From: Mobula birostris | Taxonomy: Eukaryota | NCBI RefSeq assembly: GCF_030028105.1 | Contig: NC_092382.1 | Location: 91,828,295-91,892,294 of the forward strand | DNA: 64,000 nucleotides | Direction: 5' to 3' | Part shown: positions 3,396 to 29,790 of the stretch, in pieces | Layout of the letters: each line of letters starts with the position of its first letter | Position numbering within the stretch: the stretch's first letter is position 1 | Notes under the pieces: model-generated | What the model was told of the DNA's origin: nothing | The model's database searches: none | Seen by the model: only the letters and a program-made list of their open reading frames with translations | Program-made: the position numbers and the translations under genes

Positions 3396-4053
3396 ATAGA
3401 AATATAGAAACATAGAAAATAGGTTCAGGAGTAGGCCATTCAGCCCTTTGAGCCTGCACCGCCATTTATTATGATCATGGCTCATCATCCAACTCAGAAC
3501 ACCGCCCCAGCCTTCCCTCCATACCCCCTGATCCCCATAGCCACAAGGGCCATATCTAACTCCCTCTTAAATATAGCCAATGAACTGGCCTCAACTGTTT
3601 CCTGTGGCAAAGAATTCCACAGATTCACCACTCTCTGTGTGAAGAAGTTTTTCCTAATCTCAGTCCTAAAAGGCTTCCTCTTTATCCTCAAACTGTGGCC
3701 CCTCGTTCTGGACTTCCCCAACATCGAGAACAATCTTCCTGCATCTAGCCTGTCCAATCCCTTTAGGATTTTATACGTTTCAATCAGATCCCCCCTCAAT
3801 CTTCTAAATTCCAATGAGTACAAACCCAGTTCATCCAGTCTTTCTTCATATGAAAGTCTTGCCATCCCAGGAATCAATCTGGTGAACATTCTTTGTACTC
3901 CCTCTATGGCAAGGATGTCTTTCCTCAGATTAGGGGACCAAAACTGCACACAATACTCCAGGTGTGGTCTCACCAAGGCCTTGTACAACTGCAGTAGTAC
4001 CTCCCTGCTCCTGTATTCGAATCCTCTCACTATAAATGCCAGCATACTATTTG
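3396..4053 (-). mobile_element. CR1 LINE 3' fragment
   Basis: 189-aa ORF with LYKALVRPHLEYCVQFWSP...FFTQRVVNLWNSLP; short tandem-repeat tail at 3396-3420. Confidence 0.93.
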
Positions 4054-4119
4054 CAATCAACACACATCAAAGTTGCTGGTGAACGCAGCAGGCCAAGCAG
4101 CATCTGTAGGAAGAGGTGC

Positions 4120-4155
4120 AGTCGCCGTTTCAGGCCGAGACCCTTCGTCAGGACT
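4120..4155 (-). ncRNA. Second hammerhead copy, cleavage triplet mutated to GGC
   Basis: Reverse strand reads AGTCCTGACGAAGGGTCTCGGCCTGAAACGGCGACT. Confidence 0.65.
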
Positions 4156-4929
4156 AACTGAAGGAAGAGTGAATAAGGGATTTGAAAGTTGGAGGGGGAG
4201 GGAGAGATCCAAAATGATAGGAGAAGACAGGAGGGGGAGGGATAGAGCCAAGAGCTGGACAGGTGATAGGCAAAAGGGGATACGAGAGGATCATGGGACA
4301 GGAGGTCTGGGAAGAAAGACAAGGGGGGGGGGGACCCAGAGGTTGGGCAAGAGGTATATTCAGAGGGACAGAGGGAGAAAAAGGAGAGTGAGAGAAAGAA
4401 TGTGTGCATAAAAATGAGTATCAGATGGGGTACGAGGGGGAGGTGGGCCCTTAGCGGAAGTTAGAGAAGTCGATGTTCATGCCATCAGGTTGGAGGCTAC
4501 CCAGACAGAATATAAGGTGTTGTTCCTCCAACCTGAGTGTGGCTTCATCTTTACAGTAGAGGAGGCCGTGGATGGACATGTCAGAATGGGAATGGGATGT
4601 GGAATTAAAATGTGTGGCCACTGGGAGATCCTGCTTTCTCTGGCGGACAGAGCGTAAATGTTCAGCAAAGCGGTCTCCCAGTCTGCGTCGGGTCTCGCCA
4701 ATATATAAAAGGCCACATCGGGAGCACCGGACGCAGTATATCACCCCAGTCGACTCACAGGTGAAGTGTTGCCTCACTTGGAAGGACTGTTTGGGGCCCT
4801 GAATGGTGGTAAGGGAGGAAGTGTAAGGGCATGTGTAGCACTTGTTCCGCTTACACGGATAAGTGTATCATTTTGGATCTCCCCCTCCCCCTCCAACTTT
4901 CAAATCCCTTACTCACTCTTCCTTCAGTT

Positions 4930-4965
4930 AGTCCTGACGAAGGGTCTCGGCCTGAAACGTCGACT
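4930..4965 (+). ncRNA. Minimal type I hammerhead ribozyme motif (Penelope-type)
   Basis: AGTC-CTGACGA-AGG(GTCTCGG)CCT-GAAA-CGTC-GACT: CUGANGA/GAAA core, stem I AGTC:GACT, GUC site, palindromic ACGU in place of stem III. Confidence 0.8.
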
Positions 4966-5789
4966 GTACCTCTTCCTACAGATGCTGCTTGGCCTGCTGC
5001 GTTCACCAGCAACTTTGATGTGTGTTGCTTGAATTTCCAGCATCTGCAGAATTCCTGTTGTTTGCGTTTAAATACCATTTGCAATGCCAGCATACCATTT
5101 GAGAACGTTACTGGTATCCTCTTGGGAAACGAGACAGGACAGGTGACAGAGTGTGTGTAGGGGCACACTTTTGGTCTAGTGATCACAATTCAACTGAGAC
5201 CCTCTGTTGGTCGCTGTCTCCCATGGTGGTGCATCCTAGCTGTCTACATGATATGTGAGCCAGTCCACAACCAGGACTGTAGGATAAAGAGAGAAAGTTT
5301 TTGCCCATGTAGGAGGATCCCCTCTCCTCGAATCCAAAGCAACAGAGAAAATATAAAGTTTGGAACCAGCAGCATCTCAGGAATCTCCAGTCTGTGTAGA
5401 ACTCAACACAACATTGTCCTAGAGACTCCAGCTCCATATTATTCCTCAGGGTTTACTCCCAAAGCCATACACATGAGTGGGTATGGCCGCAAGACAGCGG
5501 AGGTTTGAGATCAGAGATATCCTTCTCCAGATAAACCACCAACAACGGATGACAAGTTCTGTCTGCCCGAAGCGACTGCTTTTAAGGCTCCAATAATCTG
5601 CCTTTGCCTCTTCTCCTGTCAGTAGAAACGGTTCCTCTGGGCATATTAGGTAAACCACACGGGGAAGCCAGGAGCTGAACTTGGTTGTCAGAGAGTATTT
5701 GATTCACACGCCATTGAGAGCATTCAATGGGTATTGGATTACTCCTACCACCTCCCCTCCCAATTCAATGACAACCTGAAGGAACCATT

Positions 5790-6740
5790 AGTTTCAAGAG
5801 AATTACGGAGAAGGAAAGGACTGCTCCTCGGACTGTGATGCTAAATTGGAGAAAGGCCAATTTTGGTGGCGTCTGAAGGGATCTGGCAGGTGTGGAATTG
5901 GGGGAAGTTGTTTTCTGGCAAAGAGATGCTTTGTAAGTGGGAGGTTTTCAAAAGTAAAATATTGAGAGCACAGAATTTGTATGTTGCACTTGGAGTAAAA
6001 GGCAAAGCTAACAGGTTTAGAGACCCAGGGTAGGAAAAGAAGGGAAGGTTAGGTTAGGATAGGATAAAATGAGGCACTTCAGGAGTATAAGAAATGCAAG
6101 AGACCCCTTAAGAGAGAAATCAGGATGGTAAAAGAGGACACGAGGTTACAGTGCTGTACAAGATGAAGGATTGCCTTAGTAGACAAGGTGAAGAAGAATC
6201 CTACATTATTTTAAGAGCAAAAGTTTTGAAAGGGACAAAAAAATTAGTCTTCTGGAAGATTAGAGTGGTATATGATGTGTGGTGCAAAAAGAGATGGGAA
6301 GAGCGTAAATTGATTTTTTTTTTCATTTGTATTTACTCAGGAGATGGACACAGAATCTATAAAAGTGAGGCAAAGCAGCAGTGAGGTCATGGATCCTATA
6401 CTGACTACCGAGGAGGAGGAGTTTGCTGACTTGAGGCAAATTAGAATGGATAATTCCCCGGGGCTTGTGCGAGGCAAGTGGAGAAATTGCGGGTGCCCTA
6501 GTGAAAGTATTTATATCAACCTTAGTGACAGGCGAGGTACTGGAGGATTGGAGGGTATCTAATGTTGTCCTGCTGTTTCAGCAAGACTCGAAATGTAAAC
6601 CAGGAATTATCGGCCGGTGAGCCTGACAACAGCAGTGGGAGGTTATTGGAAGGTATTCTAAGGGACTGATATATGAGTCGGACAGGTACATGGATTGGAA
6701 AGGTTCAGTGAGATACGTCCAAATTCAGGAAGATGGGACT
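5790..6740 (+). mobile_element. Highly degraded CR1 ORF2 fragment
   Basis: LNWRKANF-like sequence, [23 protein letters not shown]-like sequence. Confidence 0.75.
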
Positions 6741-9153
6741 GGCTCATGAGGATCCATCCTACCCCTTTTCCCCTCCACATCCATTAACACACTACCTCAG
6801 GGATATTTAAACCATCTGACAAAATTCACTCAAAGATGATGATGTCTTCCATTGGCTCATCTCCATCATCATCACGGATTGGCTGCTACCCAATAACCAC
6901 GCTGAGGATCCCCACAGGGTGACCTCATTGGCTTCACATCATTGGTCTCCAGCCCAACAGCTTCGTAAGGCAACACCAATAACCTCGTCACGATTCCCAG
7001 GCAACAGCCCCCACTGGCCCATCGATTGACACCAGGATGTCATCTCTCACAGGCTCGATGCCGGTATGCAAGTCCACATCAGGGGCAAAGGTCTCCGTGA
7101 GTCAGTTCATTGATCACAAGACCAGTGAGGCTTTGCTCAAATTTCATAACCGTTCGTCAGACAATAGCCGGATTCCTGCTCCCCCAAGCACAGGAAAGGG
7201 TTGGAGAAATTGTATGGAAACTCCACAAACGAGCTGGCCGGGAAGGGGTGTCCCAGATAAAAAGATAAACCAGAGAGCCTAGGGACAGAAGAGACGTCGA
7301 TAGTGGAATGATTAGACTGCATCACATTTTGACTGGAATAGATGGGGCGGACTGCAGGAAGATTTCCACCATAAATGTGGTGATTAAAACGAGGACATTT
7401 TCGGATAATTAGTAAGAAAATGATGGGATTTGAGGGGCAGTGAAACTGGTGAGTACCTGCAGGAAAAGTCCCGAGAGACTCTACAGGCTAAGCGCTGGAC
7501 AATGGAATTAACAGGGACGCAAGCCGAATGGCCGGCAGTGACGAGCGAGACAGAATATCGCGGGACTGCGCGACTGTGAATATGGAAAGATTATTGATCA
7601 GGTTCCAGTCAATGTGATCAATGAGAATGGGTCCTCGACTTTCCGCGTTAACGCGCTTGCCCAAAGATCCGCTTCTCTGCTCTACGACTCATTGAGCATG
7701 ACCAGAAACCGAGTGTGAAGTGGTGTTATTACGGATTAGATCCGGTGTTTGGAGACTAGACTGCAAGGGATGGAAGAGACTGTTCGTTCCGCTGTCACTA
7801 AACGGTTCTGGAAATTATGGCCCGAGATTCTGACTCGGCCGGTGGTGTCTGGGAGACGGGCCGTTTAATTCACAGGCGTGTGGACGGAAAGAGGAAAGAC
7901 ATACAATTAATACGAAGGACTGATGGAGAACAGTCACTCTAATGCGACGCACAAGCTGGGCTAACCGGGGAGTGGCATTTGTTGCAGGAATACGGGAAAT
8001 GGAGGGGTCTCCACTGCACTGAGACACTAAGAACAGAGGTGAGGGCAGTGGAGTAAACGGCGATAATGAAATGAAGTGTTTGGCGTGGAAGATGGCTTTA
8101 AGATGAATGAATCCGTGTCCTTATACCCGATGTAGATTAACTCCCTATTCCCAAGAATGGAGTGTGGATGTCAAGGACGTTGAGGAATATCAGAGGGACA
8201 TTATGTAAAGCTGCCGGAAAGTCGATCACCACAAAACTAATTCGTTTTCGGGATTATTCGATGTTTAATCGTTCGACTGTTACGACACCTGTAGCATCAT
8301 CCCGGAGCTTCGTCTGGTTACGCTACAGATTTCCCAGTAGAGGTGCCACAGTTATGTTAGTTGGGAAATTCAGACATCACTGGGATCCCTGAGCTCTTGC
8401 TCTATAATGCATAAAATGTATTGGACTGTCCTTAATTCTACCAGTCAGTGACATTTCGTAGCCGTGATTCCTCTCCTGTTTTGAACACCCTCTCCCTCTT
8501 CAAGGTTCCACACACCATAACTAATCTGTGCCTCCATTTATCCGTCATCGAGCCCGCAATATCTCATTACTTGAGGGTCTCTGCGATCTGGTTGATAATA
8601 TTCACCCTGAGGGAAACACGTTGTCTCTGCACTCTCACAATTTCACTTCCAAAGGAGTCTCACAACGGAAATGCAACTTCTTATTAAGCTCCCAGTCAAC
8701 CTTCCACGGGTGTTGTGGAATGATATTTAAATCAGACGGTCCAATTCAAACACATTTACCACAACTGCTTTGAAACTTCGTGGGTTATGGTTATTATCTG
8801 CAGAAGGATCGCCCATTGATACTTTTATCTATGAACTCCCATGAATAAGTCTTGCCCTATTGGACTGTATCCTTACTAACGGGCAATATTTTTTTGTGAT
8901 TGGGCTACAAAAATTCTACTCCGCTTGTTCTTTCATTGAATGAATGCAGAGCACTGTGGACGTAGGATAATAAGGTAAACTTTGGCGTATTTTCTAGTGT
9001 TCAGTTATGTCTCTTCCGCAACAAAGTCTTCGGTTGTCGATGCATGCATCTGAAAAGATTGACAAGTCATCGTCATAAAGAGAAAATTTACAACTGTTTC
9101 AGCCACACTGTCCATCAGTCATTTTGCAGGAATTCTGCGTCCATCATCTTTTA

Positions 9154-11092
9154 ATTCACTTTAGGAAGCAAGGATCAGATGGATCTATTGAGGAATATAG
9201 GGTAGCAAGAAAGGAGCTACAGAAGGAGCTGAGAAGAGCAAGAAGGGGGCATGAGAAGGCCATGGCGTGTAGGGTAAAGGAAAACCCCAAGGCATTCTTC
9301 AATTATGTGAAAAACAAAAGGATGACAGGAGTGAAGGTAGGACCGATTAGAGATAAAGGTGGGAAGATGTGCCTGGAGGCTGTGGAAGTGAGCGAGGTCC
9401 TCAATGAATACTTCTCTTCTGTTTGCACCAATGTGAGGGAACTTGATGACGGTGAGGACAATATGAGTGAAGTTGACGTTATGGAGCATGTTGATATTAA
9501 GGGAGAGGAGGTGTTGGAGTTGTTAAAATGCATTAGGACGGAGAAGTACTCGAGGCCTGATGGAATATTCCCCAGGCTGCTTCACGAGGCGTGGGATGAG
9601 ATGGCTGAGCCTCTGGCTGGGATCTTTATGGCCTCGGTGTCCACGGGAATGTTACCGGAGGATTAGAGAGAGGCAAAAGTTGTCCCCTTATTCAGAAAAG
9701 GTAGTAGCGATAGTCAGGGTAATTATAGACCAGTGAGCCTTACGTCTGTGGTGGGAAAGCTGTTGGAAAAGATTCTTAGAAATAGGATCTATGGGCAGTT
9801 AGAGAATCATGGTCTCATCAGGGACAGTCAGCATGGGTTTGTGAAGGACAGATCGTCTCTAACAAGCCTGACAGAGTTCTTTGAGGAGGTGACCAGGCAT
9901 ATAGATGAGGGTAGTGCAGTGGATGTGATCTATATGGATTTTAGTAAGGCATTTGACAAGGCTCCACATGGTAGGCTTATTCAGAAAGTCAAAAGGTATG
10001 GGATCCAGGAAAGTTTGGCCAGGTTGATTCAGAATTGGATTGCTTGCAGAAGGCAGAGGGTCGTGGTGGAGGGTGTACATTCGGATTGGAAGGTTGTGAC
10101 AAGTGGTGTCTCACAAGGATCGGTTCTAGGAGCTCTACTTTTCGTGATTTTTATTAACGACCTGGATGTGGGGGTAGAAGGTTGGGTTGACAAGTTTGCA
10201 GGCGACACAAAAGGTTGGTGGTGTTGTAGATAGTGTAGAGGATTATCGAAGAATGCAGAGAGACATTGATAGGATGCAGAAGAGGGCTGAAAAGTGGCAG
10301 ATGGAGTTCAACCCGGAGAAGTGTGAGGTGGTGCACTTTGGAAGGACAAACTCCAAGGCAGAGTACAAAGTAAATGGCAGGATACTTGGTAGTGTGGAGG
10401 AGCAGAGGGATCTGGGAGTACATGTCTACAGATCCCTGAAAGTTGCCTCACAGGTAGATAGGGTAATTAAGAAAGCTTATGGGGTGTTAGCTTTCATAAG
10501 TCGAGGGAAAGAGTTTAATAGTCGCGGGGTAATGATGCAGCTCTATAAAACTCTGGTTAGGCCACACTTAGAGTACAGTGTCCATTTCTGGTCGTCTCAC
10601 TATTGGAAGGATGTGGAAGCATTAGAAAGGGTACAGAGGAGATTTACCAGGATGCTGCCTGGTTTAGAGAATATGGATTATGATCAGAGATTAAGGGAGC
10701 TAGGGCTTTACTCTTTGGGGAGAAGGAGGATGAGAGGAGTCATGATAGAGGTATACAAGATTTTAAAAAGGAATAGATAGAGTGGATAGCCAGCACCTCT
10801 TCCCCGGGGTACCACTGCTCAATACAAGAGGACGTTGCTTTAAGGTAAGGGGTGGAAAGTTCAAGGGGGATATTAGAGGAAGGTGTTTTACTCAGAGAGT
10901 GGTTGGTGCGTGGAATGCACTGCCTGAGTCAGTGGTGGAGGCAGATGCACTGGTGAAATTTAAGAGACTACCAGACAGGTATATGGAGGAATTTAAGGTG
11001 GGGGGTTATATGGGAGGCAGGGTTTGAGGGTCAGCACAACATTGTGGGCCGAAGAGCCTGTACTGTGCTGTACTATTCTATGTTCTATGTTC
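9154..11092 (+). mobile_element. 5'-truncated CR1 LINE (RT and 3' end)
   Basis: [59 protein letters not shown]; (TTCTATG)n tail. Confidence 0.95.
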
Positions 11093-11659
11093 TACTTTCT
11101 AATGGAAATAAAGGCCTAATTTCTATTGAACCGTCGAGACGCGTATTGGGAATCTTGCAGGAAAGTGGAATATCCGAGGATCCCACTCCACCTCCGTTCA
11201 CATGGGGAATTTTGGAACTCGACACACAAACACCACCAGACAGCAGAATTCAACAGGGATCTTAGGCGCTGTAAGATAGTGGCTCTCTTACCGCGCGGTT
11301 ATGTTCCCACTTTGATGTAGAGCATACTATAAATATTTTTTATTCAAAACCTTGTCTCCATAAATTTGCTTCAAGTAACTTGTTTGTTACTAAACGCTGT
11401 ATAAACCATAGATTTTAAAACTCGCGGGTCTTCTAGTGCTCGGCGATTTCAGGATCATCTTTGCTAACTTATAGGAAGCAGCGTCACTCGGCTGTTTGGA
11501 TACAGAATTGCCTTTCCTATTGAAGACAGAGTGTAGTGGTCGTTAGATCTTACTCTGACTCAAACTTTACCTGGCGGTGTCCCTCAGGGACCCGGGTTGG
11601 TACCTCTATACATACTGCATGGGGCTTGGCTGAAACTTGGTAGAGTGTGTTTGTGATGT

Positions 11660-12450
11660 TGGTAATGACGCAAAGATTGTTGCCTTAATGGATAGCGTAG
11701 TGCTTTGCCGAATAACAGAGCACTGTCTATCTGATGTAGATATGGGCAAATGGAAGTTAATTCGGGCAAGTGTGAGGTGTTGTGCATTGGGAGGTCTGGA
11801 GTAAAGGGGAGGGACACAGTTAATGAATTTGCGATTAACAGCGTCGCTGCACAGAGGGACAATGGAACCATATCTCCATAAAAGGTAGTTTGGGCAGTAA
11901 GGAAGACAGCTCGATAAATCGCTGGTTCAGCCGCAATTGAAGCACAGTGCAGAATTCTTCTTCCCCCATTATGTGTTGTGGAGGCGCTGGGTGGGTGCCG
12001 AACGGGTTCAACAGAATGCTACCTGGATTAGAGGATAAGGGATTTAAAGAGAGGTTGTGCAAACTTGGTTTGTTTCCTCTACAGTTTTGGAGACTAAGGG
12101 AGAGACCTGTAAATCTTTTATAGAATTACGAGAGGCATCGATTGAAAACCGGCATCTTTTCCCCATGGCGGAAATGTCTAAGGCGAAAGCAAACGGTTTT
12201 AATGCTAAAATGGAGATGTACGGGTCGGGTGTTTCTACACGGAGAGTGGTGGGTGTCTGGACGCTCTGTAGCGGAGTAAATACGATACAGACGCTTGGAA
12301 TGCCGATAGATATGCAAATGAAGACGGTGGTTTCGACCAATGACAGGACAGAAGGGATCAGGCGTCATTAGCTTCGTCAGTTGGGCGGATCACGGTGAAC
12401 GAAGAGCTCCTTTGCTCTACCGTTTGATGTTCCATGAGCTACATTATCAC
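11660..12450 (+). mobile_element. Old degraded CR1 fragment, downstream of the Siglec-like stop codon
   Basis: Residual CR1 motifs: KCEVLCIGRS, TRRVVGVW. Confidence 0.65.
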
Positions 12451-12488
12451 CGGTGAGAAACTTCAGTCCAAAGCAGTTGCTGTACATT

Positions 12489-12578
12489 TCACTTCTGGAA
12501 CTTGATATCAGCATAGACGATCTCGTCTCTTTGAGTCGGCTGCGGGTCGCCAACACGACACGATTCCTGGGCGACGCC
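12489..12578 (-). CDS. Siglec/MAG-like receptor exon 8 (last; distal ITIM IVYADI; stop)
   Basis: Acceptor TGTTCTCTTGCAG, phase 0; encodes GVAQESCRVGDPQPTQRDEIVYADIKFQK*. Confidence 0.85.
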   Translation of the reverse strand, partial: GVAQESCRVGDPQPTQRDEIVYADIKFQK

Positions 12579-12684
12579 CTGCAAGAGAACATATTTGTAT
12601 TCCACATAAAGACAAAGCTTATATTTGGCTTGGAAGTGAAGAATGGACACAAGCGAAATCCGGATGAAAATCTTTTCAATTCTG

Positions 12685-12750
12685 GATGGGAGTTCCATTA
12701 TATTTTGATGGGAGTTCCATTATATTTTGATGGGAGTTCCATTATATTTT
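12685..12750. repeat. 22-bp tandem repeat x3
   Basis: (GATGGGAGTTCCATTATATTTT)3. Confidence 0.95.
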
Positions 12751-13405
12751 CTGAAGACAATAAGATAATTACGTTGAATTTTGGATTATCCCACCAACCA
12801 CCGCTCATTTACTCTTCACATCAGATCAGCCGTATTCCCCTCTGCTTTCTCTCCAAATCCAGACACCTTAACGTCTCTTTAGTCTGTCCACTCAAGCCAC
12901 GTTGATACATTTTTGTCACGGAGCTGCAAGTCGTTCCATTGTGACCTTTGACATTTAGGGTGGGTGTCGGGGATGGAACTCACGGGAAACCCACGATATA
13001 ACGAGAACACCGTGTAAACTTTATACCAATAGATTATGACCCCCTGATTGATGGTGGGTTACTAATTTCCCAAACGGCTGCAGAGCAGCAGCGTAATATT
13101 AAAACACTAAACCTAGTAGCTGATTCAATTCTTCTTATCAAGGCAACGAAAAAGAGAAAGCGTTTTTAGCAAATATCAAGGCAAGACCAAGCAAAAGAGC
13201 ATCGAAATGTGAAAGAAGATATTTGCCATTCCTTCAGTGTCCAGCGGCCCATCGGCTCCTCATTCCCACCAATACAGCCATCAGCACGGCCTCGCCAAGT
13301 ATCACAACACTATTTGCAACGACTCTCTTGCCTGTGAAGTATAACCGGCTGAATAAAAGCAAACTACGTTACATGAAAATGTCACTCCAGTTTGACGCTG
13401 CTTAC

Positions 13406-13484
13406 CATGAAATTTATTGAAGGCGTCACAGTACTGTAGACGATCGAAAACTCGGAAACAGCTGCAGCTTTCTGTCGTTGCTTC
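13406..13484 (-). CDS. Siglec/MAG-like receptor exon 7 (basic stop-transfer segment and proximal ITIM IVYSTV)
   Basis: GGTGCTTTAG acceptor, GTAAG donor, phase 2 to 0; encodes (R)KQRQKAAAVSEFSIVYSTVTPSINFM. Confidence 0.85.
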
Positions 13485-14008
13485 CTAAAGCACCAAACAG
13501 AGACGGGTTACAAATTGGTTGCAAACCATAGAAATGATTTGCAGCGGCACCGCGACGAGGAGCAATATTTCAATAACTGTGTCTCTTATGGTTTATCCCC
13601 CGGCATTCTCGTTCAGAATAGTTCGAGTGGAGCCGCCTTATCATGTCGCGCACAAAGTAAACGTGAGGGTTATTTATTGTACAGCCTTTAATGTTTGCCC
13701 AAATTAAAAACGGGTGAGCATGTTTACAGAGCGTGGTCGTTTAAAATACAAACAAAAATGTTCGAAGTTTTCGGAGTGAAAACACAAGGAAACATCGAAT
13801 TAAGTGGAACAACGTATGTAGAATTCATTGTTCAATCCCACGCTGTCTTAATTCGGCCTCTGAAATTGTCCTTCTAAATTCCAGTTTATTGCTCCTTTAA
13901 GGCAGATGGTCAGATTCTCCTTTGAGTGGCAATGAACGAAATTTGGATTATTTACCGAAACTGGTTGGCATTGGGCACTACCTCCCCTGGGTTACAAATC
14001 ATACATAC

Positions 14009-14102
14009 CGGCACACTGCAATCGTGCACAGGACGACAATCAGAATGACAAAGCCGGCTCCCACCCCGCCTGCTGTCAAGCAGATCGTCCGGAATTCTGT
14101 TC
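14009..14102 (-). CDS. Siglec/MAG-like receptor exon 6 (transmembrane)
   Basis: CCATTTCAG acceptor, GTATGT donor, phase 1 to 2; encodes GTEFRTICLTAGGVGAGFVILIVVLCTIAVCR. Confidence 0.88.
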
Positions 14103-15021
14103 CTGAAATGGCGAACAAGGGCACGGAATGAGCCATCAGAACTGATATTTTGATAACGTGCTTTCAGAATGCAGACCCATCCCCTAAAAAAGAATTCACC
14201 GCATGTTATGTCTACATGATTGTAATTTGCGATTCCTCCCGCAGCTCTCTTGTGAAATGTGAGCACAAAGACCACCCCTATTGCACGTTTTAAGAGACTA
14301 TTAGAGGCTCCGTGGTTTTATCTGGTATGTTACTCACTGGAAAACGTGGTGTGTATGAAAATCCTCTCACTGCACCGTACGTAAATGAAACTATGCGCAA
14401 ACTAGCCACAAAAAAGGAGCAGTTATCAAACATCATTGCAAATCACATAAAGGATTCAAAGAAGTTACGGCCATGATCACGCGCCAAAAGCTACTGACGT
14501 TAGCAGCTGGTTCTTCGAAAAGGCGAAGAAACTGGCGCAACAAGTTCAGTTATTACGACATTAATCCAGAAATCTAGGTTCATTCTGACCTCCAGTACTG
14601 TAGGTAGATTTTTGCCTTCTCTCGGTGACCGGCGGGTGTCCACCGGGTTCTACACCCAAACCCGAATTAATATCTCGAACAGAACACTACACCACAATTC
14701 ATCCCTTCAGACCCCGATGTTGTGCCGTCTTCTTCGCCGACTCTATTAACACGTAACACTTCTCTCTTATAGTCCATTTTCTACCATCCATCTGCCTACC
14801 CAAGTTTCTTCAATGTCGCCGATACGTCTGCGTCTGCAAGTACCCTCGCAGAGGTCCCGCGCACCTATCACTGTCTGTGGTAAATACTTCATTTTGACAT
14901 CTACCTACCACCCCCCCATACGTTAATCTCCTTAAAATTATTATCCTCTCGTATTAGCCATTTGCGCCCGTAGGGGAAAACTATGTGGCAATCCATGTCA
15001 CTTAACATTTGCTAAACATCT

Positions 15022-15180
15022 ATCGAGTCTCATCTCATGTCCCTTCCGTCCAAAGTGAAAAAATAAACTATCCAGTCGCCTCTCATGTCTCTTCAGTCCA
15101 AAGTGAAAAAAATAAACTATCCAGTCGCCTCTCATGTCTCTTCAGTCAACAGTGAAAAAAAATATCGAGTCTCCTCTCAT
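15022..15180. repeat. ~48-50 bp tandem repeat inside a minus-strand CR1 relic; the 4th unit is split by a solo LTR
   Basis: ATC(C/G)AGTC(G/T)C(C/A)TCTCATGTC(T/C)CTTCAGTCCAAAGTGAAAAA recurs; the unit resumes at 16245. Confidence 0.8.
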
Positions 15181-16244
15181 TTTCATGGGGGACGGGCCGC
15201 TGGGAGCGAACCCAAATGTAAGACACACACACACACTGAAGTACTAGGAACAGGACTAGGCGTGTCAAGTAAGCAAGGAAAGTGAGGAAGAAACGACGCT
15301 GGACAAGACACAGGCCCTGGACGAGGTTAGGATATTGTACAGGGCCTGGGCTAGGACTAGACTAGGAAACCGGGAAGTGGTCGAGGAAATAGGAACTTGG
15401 AACCTGTACAAAGACTCCGAGCCAGAGACTGGACAGCGGCCCGGAACCTGGGTCTTGACTCGGGCTCGGTCCCCGGATCTAGGCGAGGACAAAACGTGGC
15501 TACGGTACAAGGAGTGGCAACAGGACTGGACGTGAGACTCCTAGACAGGACGAGGGAACCCAGTACCGGGCAGAGCGAGGTATTCTTGGCCTGAGCGAGG
15601 CACATGGACAGGACGAGAACACGAAGCCTTGGCTTGGTCGAAGGAGAACAGGAACGCAGAGCCTTGGTCGAGGGAGAACAGGAACACAGAACGCAGATCC
15701 TTGGTCTTGAGAGCCAGGAACATGGAACACAGAGCCGGGACTCCTCCTTGGGAACAGGTCGTAGGGCCGGGTGTCATACACAGAATGCTGAAAACGACGA
15801 GACGGTTCCCAAAACAACGTAGTGGAAAACGGTGGGGCCTACCAAGCGAAGGTGTGGACACAGAGACAGTTTCAACTCAAGGTAGCGGCAAACGGCCGGA
15901 CCTACCTAGCGAAGGTGAGGACACAGTTCCAAACAACGAAAGACAGTTCCTTATCTAGACACAGCAAGGTCCCGATCTTGCCCTGGCAGTTGAACCTGAC
16001 GGCGTTACAGGCGAGGACACACGAGAAGGTAGCAGGCGAGACTTCAGAAGTAAGGGGAAGGGGAGGGAACAGTCCAGCACCTGAAGTTGAACCCAGGAGC
16101 TGTTTATGTAGCCAGCCCAAAATGAGAATCATGTGCCTCAATTAAGGGACACAACACGATAAGGGAAAACCAGAAAACCTGGAATAAGGAACGATGGACT
16201 GGACTGTGAACCAGAACGCGGACTTCATGGACCGAACCATAACA
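15181..16244 (-). mobile_element. Solo LTR (Gypsy-like) with 5-bp TSD CTCAT
   Basis: T(T)TCAT...ATAACA termini; CTCAT at 15176-15180 and 16245-16249; homologous to 55766-57325 and to the reverse of 28045-29790. Confidence 0.8.
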
Positions 16245-17299
16245 CTCATGTCCCTTCAGTCCAAAGTGAAAAGATAATCCCAATTCACTCAGTCTATTCT
16301 CATAAAACATGCTCACTCACCCGGACAGCACGCTGGGAAACCTATTTTGCTCCCTCTGTAAAGCTTCCACATTCCACCCTAAATTGACTCTAGTGTTCAT
16401 AACTGGTGGAATATGGGTTGTGGTAGGGGATGTTATGAGCATGTAGAGATAATTTAAAATTGGGTTAATGTCGGATGAGTGGAGAATTACGACCAGAACG
16501 AGCTTAATGGATCGAAACCGTGTTCCCACGTCATACGGCTCTAGAAAGACCTTTATCCGTAACCCACGTTCAGCCGCCTTTTGCGCGGTAAACTGAAGGT
16601 CCAAGACAAAATTCTCTTTGGGATCCAATCCTCTCTCCGCCAATGTCTGTCTGGAAATCACAGTCAATTTTAACTTCATGTCAAAGTTGACATATGATTT
16701 AATCACGAACGTCATTCGCATTGTCTTCTTTCAATAATTAATAAATTAGCTATTCCTAAACGTTCGACTTAGATATGTTTAAAATATAGTTTATATACAT
16801 TTACAGCATGTGGCCATTTGAAAGTCAGCTGTCAGGTGCCCATCGATGCTGTCGGGCACCAGGAATTCACGATGAATCGGCTGAGGTTATGCTCACTCAA
16901 TACCAAACTTCCTGGCAAGAATATTGGCCGGAGGAGCTCTGACCACCCGTTGCCACTGACCACAGTGCCTTTCTGACCACAGGGTATATGGACAGAGAGC
17001 GCAGATTTATCCTCATATCAAAGGTATGGAAAGCTGCAGGGCACGGGGTTAAGGCGAGGTGTAAAACAGTCGGAGGAGATTTGACGTATTTCTTCAGCCG
17101 GGGGTGGTTGGATTGTGAAATGCAGTAAGTGAGAAGTTAGTGAAGGAAACAGGAAATATCTCGTTGAGCCGTTAATTTGTAAGCGCATAGAAGTCTAAGA
17201 CAAATAGCAGATAAAATGATATTAGTATTGTAAATACTTGTTAGTCAACATGGATATGAAAAGCCGTCGGGTCTAATTCTGCTGGGCGCTACTCTGTGA

Positions 17300-17482
17300 T
17301 CACAAACAAGAGAAAATCTGCAGATGCTGGAAATCCAAGCAACACACACAAAATGCTGGAGGAGCTCAGCAGGAACTGAGCAGAAAACACTGGAGGACTG
17401 ATGAAAGGTCTCGGCACGAAACTGTGCGCTTTTCCACAGACGCTGCCTGACCTGCTGATTTCCTCCGGCATTTTATGTGTGT
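17300..17482 (+). mobile_element. Short Penelope-derived hairpin element carrying a hammerhead core
   Basis: Inverted arms ACACAAAATGCTGGAGGAGCTCAGCAGG / CCTGCTGATTTCCTCCGGCATTTTATGTGT around CTGATGAAAGGTCTCGGCACGAAAC; TSD-like TACT(C/G)TGTGA at 17290 and 17483. Confidence 0.8.
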
Positions 17483-17620
17483 TACTGTGTGACAGTCAGT
17501 CTTTAATCCAAATGGACTTTGCTTCATCTACTGACTTGATTTGGGTAAATTTGACTAAATAGGAGAAAATCTGGTTCACAATTCTCACTCCCTCAAATTA
17601 CTGATAGTTATAATATGCAC

Positions 17621-17902
17621 CCTCGGAACGGAGCGGGTATTCAGAGGCGCGGTAACCGTGGGTATTCCCTGCAGAGCATGAAATCGCATTTCCCATTCTA
17701 TCTGCACGGGTCAGATTCACTGAGCTCCGTATCACGTTCCCGTCCGTCTCCCAGACCGCGACCACATCCTCCGACCTGAGCTCCGCCAGGGCTTCCCCGT
17801 CGATGCTCCATGAAGCGTTTGCCGGAGGGTTGGCTCTGACCTTGCAAACACAGTTCGTCACGGTCCCAGTGCTGGTGCACGCCAGTTCAGTTTTGGGTCT
17901 GT
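17621..17902 (-). CDS. Siglec/MAG-like receptor exon 5 (membrane-proximal Ig domain)
   Basis: CATATCCAG acceptor, GTGCAT donor, phase 1-1; YRPKTELAC...CVCKVRANPPANASWS...ISCSAGNTHG. The CxC..NP pattern matches the membrane-proximal domain of MAG and fish Siglecs. Confidence 0.88.
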
Positions 17903-18675
17903 CTGGATATGGAACGACAAGCGAGAAACGAATGCTTACAACTGGTGACAAATTCACGCTGCGGAACACACTCTAAATGTAGATTGATTTTACTGAATTA
18001 TGTAAAAAAACTGCAAAACGGCAATTACTAGTTAATTATATATAATATTACCAAATATATAACGATAATTATATACAGCGGTTTCGGTTAATTGCGCGAT
18101 CGGTTATTCGGGGCAGCCGCTTAGATGGGACAACTCTTAAAGAACAAATCGAGAAAATACCCGGGGCTCCCTTCGTTTATCTGGGACACTGAGCCACTTC
18201 ATTGCGACGGGAGAGTGTTATAAAACACATTCTAACCTGCGTCAGACGTGAGCACTTGAGTGGCCATTAGGCACCGCACTGTTCTCAGTGCAAAAAGTTT
18301 TTAAATAGCGTCCGCTGCGTGTGATTTGTTCAGATAAGGTGACTTTTGTCACAGGAAGTTGGCGGGAAATTAGTAGTAAGACAATTCAGAACTCCTGTGT
18401 TCCTGCGTTTCATACATACACGCTGAGATATTCCAGTAAATTTAAGGTTGCCAGGAAAATCAATCAGATTTTGGGGATTTCGTAGCAAATTTAGGTATGA
18501 GTGGAAATCTAGGTGGTCATAGCGATAGAAATATATGGCAAATCCCCAGAGTCAGTAGCGGGGTTCAGGACTGAACCGGGATCGATTGAGCGTCAGGACT
18601 CATGTTTAACTGGCTACGTCAATAGAAGTGACAAGGGGGCGTAGAGGCGAGGGAAAAGCTTTCCATCGTCTGTAA

Positions 18676-18862
18676 CCCAGAAAAAAATGCTGGAGGAACT
18701 CAGCAGGCCAGGCAGCATTTGCGGAAAAGAGTACAGCCGACGTTTCGGGCCGAGGCCCTTCATCAGGATCCTTTCCGTAGATGCTTCCTGGCCTGCTGAG
18801 TTTCTCCAGCATTTTGTGTGTGTTGCTCGGATTTCCAGCATCTGCAGATTTTCTCTTGTTTG
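18676..18862 (-). mobile_element. Short Penelope-derived hairpin element with intact hammerhead core and 13-bp TSD
   Basis: ~44-bp inverted arms; minus-strand CTGATGAAGGGCCTCGGCCCGAAACGTC in the loop; CCATCGTCTGTAA at 18663-18675 and 18863-18875. Confidence 0.88.
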
Positions 18863-18884
18863 CCATCGTCTGTAAAGAGATTAT

Positions 18885-24646: not shown

Positions 24647-27600
24647 AATAGACAATAGACAGACAATAGACAATAGACATAGGTGCAGGAGTAGGCCATT
24701 CGGCCCTTCGAGCCAGCACCGCCATTCGCTGTGATCATGGTTGAATCATCCACAATCAGTATCCAGTTCCTGCCTTATCTCCATAACCTTTGATTCCGCT
24801 ATCTTTAGGAGCTCTATCCATCTCTTTCTTGAAAGCATCCAGAGACTTGGCCTCCACAGCCTTCTGGGGCAGAGCATTCCATAGATACACCACTCTCTGG
24901 GTGAAAACGTTTTTCCTCAACTCCGTTCTAAATGGCCTACCCCTTATTCTTAAACTGTGGCCTCTGGTTCTGGACTCACCCATCAGCGGGAACATGCGTC
25001 CTCCCTCCAGCCTGTCCAATCCCTTAATAATCTTATATGTTTCCATCAGATCCCCTCTCATCCTTCTAAATTCCAGTGTATACAAGCCCAATCGCTCCAA
25101 TCTTTCAACATATGACAGTCCCGCCATCCCGGGAATTAACCTTGTGAACCTACGCTGCACTGCCTCAATAGCTAGAATGTCCTTCCTCAAATTTGGAGAC
25201 CAAAACTACACGCAATACTCCAGGTGTGGTCTCACCAGGGCCTTGTATAGCTGCAGGAGGACCTCTTTGCTCGTATACTCAATTACCCTTGTTATGAAGG
25301 CCAGCATGCTATTAGCTTTCTTCACTGCCTGCTGTACTTGCATGTTTGCTTTCAGTGACTGATGTACAAGACCACCTAGATCTCGTTGTACTTCCCCTTT
25401 TCCTAACTTGACTCTATTTAGATAATAATCTGCCTTCCTGTTCTTACCACCAAAGCGGATAACCTCACATTTATCCACATTAAACTGCAACTGCCATGCA
25501 TCCGCCCACTCACCCAGGCTGTCCAGTTCACCCTGCATTCTCATAACGTCCTCCTCACATTTCACACTGCCACTTAGCTTTGTGTCATCTGCAAATTTGC
25601 TAATGTTACTTTTAATCCCTTCAACTAAATCATTTACAAAACAGCTGCGGTCCCAGCATCGAACCCTGCGGTACCCCACTGGTCACCGCCTGCCATTCCG
25701 AAAGGGACCCGTTAATCACTACTCTTTGTTTCCTCTCAGCCAGTCAATTTTCAATCCATGTCAATACTCTTTCCCCAATACCAAGTGCCCTAATTTTGCC
25801 CATTAATCTCCTATGTGGGGCTTAATCGAAGGCTTTCTGGAAGTCCAGGTACACAACATCCACTGGCTCTCCCTTGTCCATTTTCATAGTTACATACTCA
25901 AAAAATTCCAGAAGATTAGTCAAGCACTATTTCCCCTTCGTAAATCCATGCTGACTCAGACTGATCCTGTTATTGCTATCCAAATGTGTCGTAATTTCAT
26001 CTTTTATAATTGACTCCAGCATCTTTCTCACCACTGACGTCAGACTAACCAGTCTATAATTGTCTGTTTTCTGTCTCCCGCCTTTCTTGAAAAGTGGGAC
26101 AACATTAGCCACCCTCCAATCTACAGGAACTAATCCTGAATCCATCGAACATTGGAAAATGATTACCAATGCGTCCACGGTTTCTAAAGCCACCTCCTTA
26201 AGTACCCTGGGATACAGACCATCAGGTCCCGGGGACTTATCAGCCTTCAGACCCAAAAGTCTATCCAACACCGTTTCCTGCCTAATATAAATTTCCTTCA
26301 ATTCATCCATTCCCTTAGGTCCTTTGGTCACTATTATATCTGGGTGATTATTTCTGCCTTCCCTAGTGAAGACAGATCCAAAGTACCTGTTCAACTCGTC
26401 TGCCATTTCCTTGTTCCCCATAATAAGTTCATCCGTTTCTGTCTTCAAGGGCCCAATTTTGGTCTTAACTTTTTTTTTCATTTTCACATACCTAAAGAAG
26501 CTTTTACTATCCTCCTTTACATTCCTGGCTAGTTTACCTTCGTACCTCATTTTTTCTCTGCGTATTGCCTTTTTAGTTATCTTCTGTTGCTATTTAAAAG
26601 TTTCCTAATCCTCCGGCTTCCCACACATCTTTGCTATGTTATACTTATTCGCTTTCATTTTTATACTGTCCTTTATTTCCCTTGCCAGCCATGGCCTCCC
26701 CTTACTCCCTTTAGGATCTTTGTTCCTCTTTAGAATGAACTGATCCTGCACCTTCCGCATTATTCCCAGAAACACTTGCCATTGCTGTTCCACTGTCATC
26801 CCTGCTAGGGTATTGTTCCATTGAACTTTGGCCAGCTCTTCCCTCATAGCTCCATAGTTCCATTTGTTCAGCTGTAATACTAACACTTCCGATTTTCCCT
26901 TCTCCCTCTCAATTTGTAGATTAAAACTTATCATATTATGGTCACTACCTCCTATTGGCTCCTTTACCTCGAGGTCCCTGATCAAATCCGGTTCATTGCA
27001 CAACACTAAATCTAGAATTGCCTTCTCTCTGGTAGGCTCCAATACAAGCTTCTCGAAGAATCCATCTCAGAGGGGCTCCACAAACTCCCTTTCTTGGGGT
27101 CCTGTACCAACCTGATTCCTCCAGTCTACCTGCATGTTGAAGTCCCCCGTAATAACTGTAGCATTATCTTTGCGACATGCCAATTTTAATTCTTGATTCA
27201 ACTTACACCCTACATCCAGACTACTGTTTGGGGGCCTGTAGATAACTCCCGTTAGGGTCTTTCTACCCTTAGAATTTCTCAGTTCTTTCCATACTGACTC
27301 TACGTCTCCTGATTCTATATCCCCCCCTCACAAGGGACTGAGTATCGTTCCTCACCAACAGAGCAACCCCACCCCCTCTGCCCATCAGTCTGTCCTTTCG
27401 ATAGGACGTATATCCTTGAATATTCATTTCCCAGGCCCTGTCCACTTGAAGCCATGTCTCTGTTATTCCCACAACATCACACTTGCCAATTTCCAACTGT
27501 GCCTCAAACTCATCCACTTTATTTCTTGTACTTCGTGCATTCATATACAATACTTTTAATTCATTACTCCCCTCACCTCCCGTATCAGTTCCTATTTCAC

Positions 27601-28044: not shown

Positions 28045-29790
28045 TGTCATTGTCCGGATCGGGGTCCCTTTAAATTTACCTTGTTTATGTTACGATCCGG
28101 ACCGTTGATTCCCTGTTTTCCCGTGCCCCTCGACTTTGGTGATTAGAGGCAATTAACACTCGGCTGAACCGGTAGTTTATAGTCTCCGGCTTTCAGCCGT
28201 TCGGCGCGGGAGCGTCAGCAAAGTCATCCAAGGTACGGTATGCTGATGTCATCTGGCCGGAGCAAGCCTACTCTCTGCCGAAGCGAGTGCCGGTAATTCG
28301 CCTCTTCTCACCGGAGCAACCCTGTCCAGTTACCTCGCCAAAGCGAGCCTGCAAAGTTTCCTAACCGAGGTGGGACCGTCAGTTAACCTGACGGAGGGAA
28401 TCAAGAACCGCTGTCTACTGTTCCCGAGCCGAGTAGAGAGCTCGCCACTACTCGGAGGCTCCAAGCCAAGTCCTGGCTCTGGCAGCATTCAAGTTCCAAG
28501 CCAAGTCCTGGCTCCGACGGCATTCAAGTTCCAAGCCAAGTCCTGGCTCCGGCGGCATTCAAGTTCCAAACCAAGTCCTGGCTCCGGCGGCATTCGAGTT
28601 CCAAGCCAAGTCCTGGCTCCGGCAGCATTCAAGTTCCAAGCCAAGTCCTGGCTCCGGCGGCGTTCAAGTTCCAAGCCAAGTCCTGGATCCGGCGGCGTTC
28701 AAGTTCCAAACCAAGTCCTGGCTCTGGCGGCGTTCAAGCACCAAGCCAAGTCCTGGTCCCGGCGGCATTCAAGCACCAAGCCAAGTCCTGGTCCCGGCGG
28801 CATTCAAGCACCAAGCCAAGTCCTTGTCCCGGCGGCATTCAAGCGCCAAGCCAAGTCCTGGCCCTGGCGGCATTCAAGCACCAAGTCAAGGCCTGTCCCT
28901 GGCGGCATTGAAGCACCAAGTCAAGTCCTGACCCTGGCGGCATTGAAGCACCAAGTCAAGTCCTGGCCCTGGCGGCATTCAAGCACCAAGTCAAGTCCTG
29001 ATCCTGGCGGCATTCAAGCACCAAGTCCAGTCCTGATCCTCGCGGCATGCAAGCACCAAGTCAAGTCCTGGCCCTGGCGGTCTGTGATTCCTGTCCTACT
29101 CCCTTGTCTGAATCCCTTCTCTGCCCCTTTCGCCTCTAGCCCTCGTCTGCAGCTCCCGCCTGCACTTCGGTCTAGTTCCATCGCCAGGGCTAGATAGGTA
29201 CTGTCTGGTGTGCTTTGGTCTTGTCTTGTCTCGTCCTCGCCTCCGTGGGATAAGTCAGGCCGTCTTGCTGTTGCCCCGCGGGGGGTCATGAGTCCCGGCC
29301 CTATGTCTTGTACCCAAGGTGGGGTCCCGACTCTCTGTTCGGTGTGTGAATACCGGCCCTATGTCTTGTACCCAAGGAGGTGTCCCGACTCTGTGTTCTG
29401 TGTATGTGTCCACGGTTCCATGTACCTGCTCTCCCGAGACCGAGGCTCTGTTTTCCATGTTCCTCCTCTCCCTAGCCCATGTCATGTCCTTGCCTGGTTC
29501 TGGGGTCCGAGCCCGACGCAAGACCCAGGTACTGGGTCCTTGCCCAGTCTCGGGCTCGGAGTCCATACCCTAGCCTCTTCATGTCTCCTCCAGTTCTGGG
29601 AGCCGATTCTGAGTCCAAGCCCAGACCCTTGTTCCAGCCTAGTCGTAGTCCTGAGTCCTTGTCCAGTTCGCTATTTCCTGCTCGTGCCTTCCTCCCTTGG
29701 TATCGAACAATAAACTAAATCTAAGTAACCTCACAAGTTGTGTCATGCATTTGGGTCCACCCTTGCTCTCAATGCCCTGCCATTGTGACA
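28045..29790 (+). mobile_element. Solo LTR (Gypsy-like) with internal minisatellite
   Basis: TGTCA...TGACA termini, AAAAT/AAAAC flanks, AATAAA near 29708; shares sequence with the LTRs at 15181 and 55766. Confidence 0.75.
28461..29079. repeat. 35-bp minisatellite, ~17 copies
   Basis: Unit CCAAGCCAAGTCCTGGCTCCGGCGGCATTCAAGTT. Confidence 0.95.

Follow-up and report, generated by a model that had tools for sequence, protein, structure and literature searches.

Hammerhead-bearing hairpins in the genome of Mobula birostris as head-to-head stubs of a Penelope-like element

Introduction

Insertions of EN+ Penelope-like elements (PLEs), as set out in the parts of the literature on which we draw here and below, comprise an inverted, 5′-truncated copy and a 30–40-bp tail on one side only (Arkhipova et al., 2013, PMC3846280; Craig et al., 2021, PMC8557442), and Penelope promoters lie within the pseudo-LTR (PMC2377424; PMC3846280). 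A PLE protein studied in vitro cuts the two strands of its target and extends each of them; reverse transcription begins at two internal sites, one on each side of the tail, the protein is predicted to dimerize and ribozyme cleavage is not required (Frangieh, 2024, PMC11167929). The minimal hammerhead ribozymes of metazoan PLEs are found as opposite-strand motif pairs 100–700 bp apart and as many single motifs from truncated elements; they do not cleave as monomers and cleave weakly as dimers (Cervera and De la Pena, 2014, PMC4209133). The non-LTR retrozymes of animals, in turn, consist of units arrayed head-to-tail in tandem, each of which contains a complete ribozyme, and give rise to circular RNAs (Cervera and De la Pena, 2020, PMC7229834; Li et al., 2026, 10.64898/2026.07.22.740005).

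In this paper, we analyze a small hairpin from Mobula birostris, located in a window of 64,000 nucleotides (RefSeq assembly GCF_030028105.1, contig NC_092382.1, positions 91,828,295 to 91,892,294 of the forward strand), and compare it with similar insertions across the genome. A preliminary description of the window had proposed that such hairpins could form a non-autonomous, retrozyme-like family of self-cleaving hairpin RNAs, mobilized by Penelope RT/GIY-YIG and not just random truncations. The sequence at 18676–18862 consists of two 3′ ends of an autonomous PLE (RT plus GIY-YIG) set head-to-head, with a tail of ~36 nt on only one of them. This inverted, one-sided-tail architecture is already published, and the hairpins are of a known kind, namely head-to-head Penelope stubs. 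They share with EN+ PLEs the head-to-head pseudo-LTRs, the tail at one end, duplications of 8–10 bp or longer and strong 5′ truncation; they differ from the insertions described in those accounts in that the halves often measure <140 bp, the whole insertion being a small hairpin, and in their very high copy number, and the pairing rule and the stop site quantified here go beyond those descriptions (PMC8557442; PMC3846280).

Coordinates are those of the window. Positions within Penelope ends are signed and counted from the C of the CTGA core, which is taken as 0; for old copies, the inner ends were estimated from alignments and may be off by a few bases.

Structure of the Hairpin and Related Pieces in the Window

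As first described, inverted arms and a hammerhead core lie within a perfect 13-bp direct repeat (18663–18675 and 18863–18875), which encloses 187 bp at 18676–18862. The core, CTGATGA..GGG/CCC..GAAA CGTC, runs on the minus strand from 18766 to 18739, and the RNA fold of the element has a z of −9.8 against 200 shuffles. The hairpin is made up as follows.

18663..18675, plus strand: left target-site duplication, 13 bp
18676..18768, minus strand: untailed Penelope-like 3′ end, about +93 to −2, subfamily B1
18734..18768, minus strand: minimal type I hammerhead, core and stem II kept, stem I of 2 pairs
18769..18862, plus strand: second Penelope-like 3′ end, +38 to +131, ~36-nt tail at about 18827–18862
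18863..18875, plus strand: right target-site duplication, 13 bp

The predicted cut of this hammerhead falls between 18739 and 18738. Further Penelope-derived pieces occur elsewhere in the window.

4035..5101: longer insertion on the same head-to-head plan, young subfamily A, 19-bp duplication with 1 mismatch
17290..17492, both strands: second head-to-head stub, 10-bp duplication with 1 mismatch
41331..41470, minus strand: single tailed arm, +134 to +13, 11-bp duplication with 1 mismatch
43023..43131, minus strand: decayed single arm
43353..43542: third, older stub, arms +119 to +44 and −5 to +92, 13-nt filler
46349..46496: decayed two-armed stub, weak profile matches on both strands
47162..47261, plus strand: decayed single arm
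57351..57449, plus strand: one arm only, paralogue of 43437–43542
60639..60721, plus strand: decayed single arm

The stub at 17290–17492 repeats the architecture seen at 18663, as had been noted for 17300–17482; a tailed arm on the minus strand (+131 to +61) is followed by a 24-nt filler and by an untailed arm on the plus strand (0 to +96). The junctions of the three window hairpins are three different ones. A search around the 43355 stub revealed no duplication of at least 7 bp. This stub and the sequence at 57350–57450 had both been counted as further copies of the hairpin: the former is indeed two-armed, but the latter is a single-arm paralogue that lies within an old 2-kb duplication and is therefore no independent copy of the 43355 hairpin. 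The two parts of this duplication (43430–45412 and 57343–59337) are 76% identical, and their sequence, the Penelope arm excepted, had no repeat copies in the blind sample described below. The single arm with its duplication reported at 41342 was recovered, as were the decayed cores at ~43100 (minus strand), ~46420, ~47164 and ~60630, all four as matches to a profile of the pseudo-LTR (pLTR) with E values of 2e-10 to 7e-5; the reversed window, used as a control, gave one match (E 0.017).

The longer element at 4054–5082 combines a ~810-bp 3′ end on the minus strand, untailed and with an intact GIY-YIG C-terminus (domain at 4457–4855, above the Pfam cut-off), with a ~200-bp inverted, tailed end on the plus strand. 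The hairpin arms match it at 82–85%, which upholds the reported likeness to the pseudo-LTR at 4055–5070; the arms belong to another, older subfamily than the 4055 element (B1 for 18663, A for 4055).

The surroundings of these pieces are themselves repetitive. At least 14 kb of the window (4457–18876, including the 4055 and 18663 elements) are present in four copies on the same contig at >99% identity, which span about 2.3 Mb, two in each orientation. The 4055 Penelope insertion sits inside the 3′ part of a LINE-like RT fragment (3435–4066 and 5083 onward), presumably CR1-like, and further LINE-like RT fragments lie at 2268, 9079–10780, 20198 and 24787–26589. Two near-identical single-exon frames of 316 aa in opposite orientation (51770–52720, minus strand; 62722–63672, plus strand) read like what we take to be class A G-protein-coupled receptors, and tandem-repeat arrays with open frames occupy 28247–29197 and 55944–56471, their units being about 93 and 54 bp as judged from translation.

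The Parent Element

RT and GIY-YIG are encoded together in two genomic copies of the parent element, whose near-full frames measure 898 and 909 aa; in these, Pfam recovers RVT_1 (E 1.8e-4) and GIY-YIG (E 9e-4), both below the curated cut-offs. The parent family is large and young; a first look at the genome gave 197,857 candidates, and the 150 that were scored are 98–100% identical. GIY-YIG coding sequence can be read upstream of each of four subfamily ends (A, B1, B2 and C), the parent of subfamily B1 being seen only as the GIY-YIG C-terminal coding end. Of 25 loci retrieved with the ORF 5′ region, 9 also have the pseudo-LTR, the ~200-bp end of the element, immediately upstream and in the same orientation, giving a partial tandem. 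The features of EN+ PLEs found in the family include an RT with a C-terminal GIY-YIG, a tandem pseudo-LTR with a hammerhead, an inverted truncated copy, a one-sided tail and a target-site duplication of variable length, and the Penelope pseudo-LTR origin of the hairpins and their mobilization by Penelope RT/GIY-YIG, both put forward in the preliminary description, are supported.

A CxxxxCxxC-type linker motif before the GIY-YIG points to the Neptune/Nematis type (PMC8557442). The element resembles Poseidon of Anolis (PAc) in vitro in its two putative RT start sites, which bound the tail downstream of the ribozyme, and in the proposed cutting and extension of both strands, and is unlike PAc in having this type of linker (PMC11167929). 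In two near-full copies (L205 and L209), kilobase-scale inverted ORF pieces are joined at the 5′ side, the outcome of the same inversion process as the stubs on a larger scale.

Genome Samples

A genome search with 18663 as the query gave 4430 candidates, of which 40 were scored and 30 loci fetched. Three near-identical copies of 18663 were rejected as retrotransposed copies, as they have 3 kb of flank in common at 99.3–99.7% and are segmental duplicates; the other 26 fetched look-alikes have their outer ends in common and differ in their centres. Because this set had been picked for likeness across the junction, a blind sample was drawn from large contigs by taking 10-kb pieces at round coordinates; of 151 such stretches, 2 consisted wholly of N, and 1.49 Mb could be used. 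Searched with a profile for the terminal part of the pseudo-LTR, this sample gave 331 matches, or 330 after duplicate removal, and the reversed sample gave none. Arms with a score under 60 or falling short of +80 were dropped, leaving 252 of the 330, and 35 of 42 two-armed candidates of up to 360 bp were kept (of those dropped, 3 lay at the edge of a stretch and 4 had an outer end that did not reach +80). The 35 hairpins measure 126–329 bp, 11 of them 165–205 bp, and represent all four subfamilies. Their density in the blind sample, about 23 per Mb, extrapolates to an estimated 9 × 10^4 to about 10^5 stubs in the 4.0-Gb genome.

Outer Ends, Pairing and the Stop at the Ribozyme

The hairpins have two fixed outer ends. 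Among the 330 blind arms the outer ends are bimodal, at about +93 to +98 and +127 to +131 and about 35 nt apart, and a tailed arm is paired with an untailed one in 27 of the 35 blind hairpins. Where a clear duplication of 9–17 bp encloses the hairpin (22 of 35), this pairing rises to 20 of 22, against 49% expected (P 4.5e-5), and the same pairing holds in all five independent longer insertions of which both ends could be seen. The two arms also agree in lineage: in all 15 subfamily-A hairpins compared, they are nearer to each other than to the average arm of other A hairpins, from which it follows that both derive from one source lineage.

The inner ends vary. Of the 252 arms, 78 end above 0, 63 at −8 to 0, 42 at −9 to −100, 24 at −101 to −390 and 45 further up, such that the ends at −8 to 0 form a strong pile-up (P 2e-21 against −40 to +25) at the 5′ edge of the ribozyme. 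Several single arms with perfect duplications begin exactly at −8 to −2. No pile-up was seen in this sample at the predicted ribozyme cut site (+28), where +26 to +30 holds 7 of the 67 ends in +1 to +60 (P 0.32). When both arms of a hairpin stop within −8 to 0, their combined length is about 230 bp, which accounts for the recurring size of ~180–230 bp, and the joints between arms show 0–4 nt of overlap, are blunt or contain filler. With outer ends at two fixed sites and inner ends piled up at the ribozyme edge, the ends of the insertions are, as had been suspected, not random.

Origin of the Head-to-Head Arms

We regard the hairpins as very probably independent, dead-end insertions of two 5′-truncated Penelope 3′ ends, head-to-head, likely formed when both ends of a staggered cut prime RT. 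In such an insertion, GIY-YIG would cut both strands 9–17 nt apart; one 3′-OH would prime at the tail-distal start site (~+130) and the other at the tail-proximal site (~+95); and both cDNAs would head for the RNA 5′ end, often stopping at −8 to 0, where a transcript initiated within the pseudo-LTR probably has its 5′ end. The cDNA ends, truncated or run off, would then be end-joined with 0–4 nt of overlap or filler, and the hairpin and its ribozyme remnant would be by-products. Priming on both strands is in direct accord with the way the strands run in a head-to-head pair enclosed by a duplication. In L1 twin priming, both target ends prime and the inverted pieces, flanked by a duplication, come from different parts of the RNA. 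The stubs resemble its products as duplication-flanked inverted insertions for which both target ends would have served as primers, and are unlike them in that their two halves are copies of one and the same 3′ sequence, begun at two fixed sites. The account of PAc, in the parts cited here, describes no joined inverted products (PMC11167929). As a bolder proposal, which we put forward tentatively and would not yet back, the stubs may be an in vivo record of Penelope integration, in which both cut ends prime at the two start sites within one RNP, often on the pseudo-LTR at the extreme 5′ end of its own transcript, and the cDNA runs off at the hammerhead front in the manner of a strong-stop.

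The TCAGT/CCAGT at the stop site, which we take to be an initiator-like motif, and the location of Penelope promoters in the pseudo-LTR favor a transcript start at −8 to 0, but the same bases are presumably also splice-acceptor-like. A polypyrimidine tract and CAG precede the ribozyme in all four subfamilies. The pile-up could accordingly mark a block or a splice junction at a 3′ splice site and not the RNA 5′ end, the more so as the intron of D. virilis Penelope ends at helix I (PMC4209133). However, the 36 single arms that end at the stop site have no upstream exon in common, and no deletion ending at the ribozyme 5′ edge was found among the aligned arms; we therefore consider a splice site or block somewhat unlikely. 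Four putative-RNA contig sets compared with a subfamily-A pseudo-LTR/ORF junction showed no skip ending at this edge, but such sets cannot show starts, strand or level and were given no weight on either side.

The insertions could also be independent while the inverted arm stems from a single cDNA, or an antisense RNA, that folds back and primes itself or switches template. Self-priming on an antisense template has been put forward for Penelope copies that lie head-to-head and have palindromic junctions (PMC3846280), and an origin of this type would agree both with the single lineage of the two arms of a copy and with the several junctions that fall within the self-complementary stems of the ribozyme. 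At its outer end, however, a fold-back copy should not extend beyond its template, and fold-back alone would not lead one to expect outer ends at two exact sites with each insertion having one of either kind (20/22), nor do the many junctions that are blunt or contain filler favor it; we judge it improbable. Palindromes are prone to deletion, and near-perfect ones exist, both arms reaching the core in 6 of the 35 hairpins, such that the stubs could have been born as longer or perfect palindromes and later shortened by central deletion. Against this, single arms with perfect duplications stop at the same −8 to −2 site, which shows that the stop is set at insertion, and junctions are already varied in young copies, leaving central deletion very unlikely.

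Independence of the Copies

The copies are independent of each other. A family copied as units would have junctions and lengths in common, but the 35 blind hairpins, at 126–329 bp, have 34 distinct junctions; identical junctions occur in 1 of 595 pairs against 0.28 expected (P 0.25, arm permutation), and junctions within 1 nt in 2 pairs against 2.0 expected. Insertion lengths form a continuum from short hairpins to kilobase insertions. The picture differs among 27 copies selected for their likeness to 18663, in which 14 of 351 junction pairs lie within 1 nt against 4.8 expected (P 0.0004), 10 of the 27 having junctions at +35 to +41/−6 to −1. Although this set was chosen on the junction, its clustering counts against independence and, by count alone, may leave room for a small sub-family. 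The 10 copies with similar junctions, however, have 0.29 same-arm variants in common per pair, against 0.38 across arms and 0.34 with other copies, and L011, with a junction as in 18663, is among the most distant at 86.6% likeness to it, when copies with other junctions reach 91.8%; similar junctions thus recur without common descent. The separate clade envisaged for the hairpins does not appear, there being no arm-specific variants common to the similar-junction copies. The hallmarks of a master copy (SINE- or MITE-like) are likewise missing, with no common junction or length in the 35 blind copies and no clade-defining derived variants in the 27 selected ones.

State of the Ribozyme

The hairpins had been described as enclosing a hammerhead. 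The core motif is present at 18663, but none of the three window hairpins has an intact ribozyme: at 18663 the junction has removed the 5′ strand of stem I, leaving 2 pairs; the 17300 hairpin is missing the GTC cleavage triplet; and in the 43355 hairpin stem III is changed and stem I weak. Among 71 hairpins examined, a strict core with the usual spacing is found in 7, and none has more than 3 contiguous stem I pairs, where a minimal type I hammerhead would have 4–5. Ten of the 35 blind hairpins stop short of the core altogether. Among arms that reach −5, core and stem I are both kept in 20 of 42 in subfamily A, 0 of 14 in B1, 0 of 35 in B2 and 2 of 2 in C.

An Rfam scan of the window found no hammerhead family, as expected for minimal motifs, and monomer folds of four window ribozymes are no better than shuffles (z −0.1 to −1.3). 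The motifs resemble the minimal hammerheads of metazoan PLEs in their type I minimal core, palindromic helix III stub and extra base before stem II; unlike those, they are mostly broken in stem I in the hairpins (PMC4209133). Given the broken stem I and the lack of monomer cleavage in metazoan minimal hammerheads, a self-cleaving hairpin RNA from the stubs appears unlikely. In the B1 copies closest to 18663 (L005–L030), the majority line reads CTGC(T/C)GA in place of CTGANGA, and C at core position +3 occurs in 4 of the 14 B1 arms from the blind sample but in none of the 42 A arms. This C would mark a B1 sub-lineage with an altered catalytic core that has nonetheless spread.

The hairpins are like non-LTR retrozymes in being PLE-related, small, hammerhead-bearing and non-coding, and unlike them in being dispersed and head-to-head with at most one damaged ribozyme (PMC7229834; Li et al., 2026); all pairs are head-to-head where retrozyme units are head-to-tail, and the complete hammerhead expected in each unit compares with a strict core in 7 of 71. 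A non-autonomous, retrozyme-like family, in which Penelope RT copies a master hairpin RNA with a self-cleaving hammerhead as a unit, could draw on the many look-alikes of 165–205 bp (4430 candidates, 40 scored), the 10 of 27 selected copies with a junction near that of 18663 and the duplication that each copy has of its own, but with junction sharing at chance in the blind sample, a continuum of lengths, no clade by same-arm variants or by L011, hairpins in all subfamilies, a ribozyme mostly cut, no tandem arrangement and a long perfect hairpin that has no RT start site distinct from the parent's, it is extremely unlikely and already largely refuted. Copies with junctions of their own that arose as independent truncations, named beforehand in the preliminary description as what would refute such a family, are largely what was found.

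Implications

Small hammerhead hairpins in genomes of this kind are liable to be mis-called as retrozymes or MITEs, and caution is warranted in their annotation. The residual value of the stubs is mechanistic and concerns the origin of the inverted ends and the one-sided tail of Penelope, for which the strict pairing of tailed with untailed arms and the stop at the leading edge of the ribozyme provide two predictions that are testable in an existing in vitro system. If twin priming with run-off is true, both the joining chemistry and the start of the transcript could be read at single-base resolution from about 10^5 fossil insertions.
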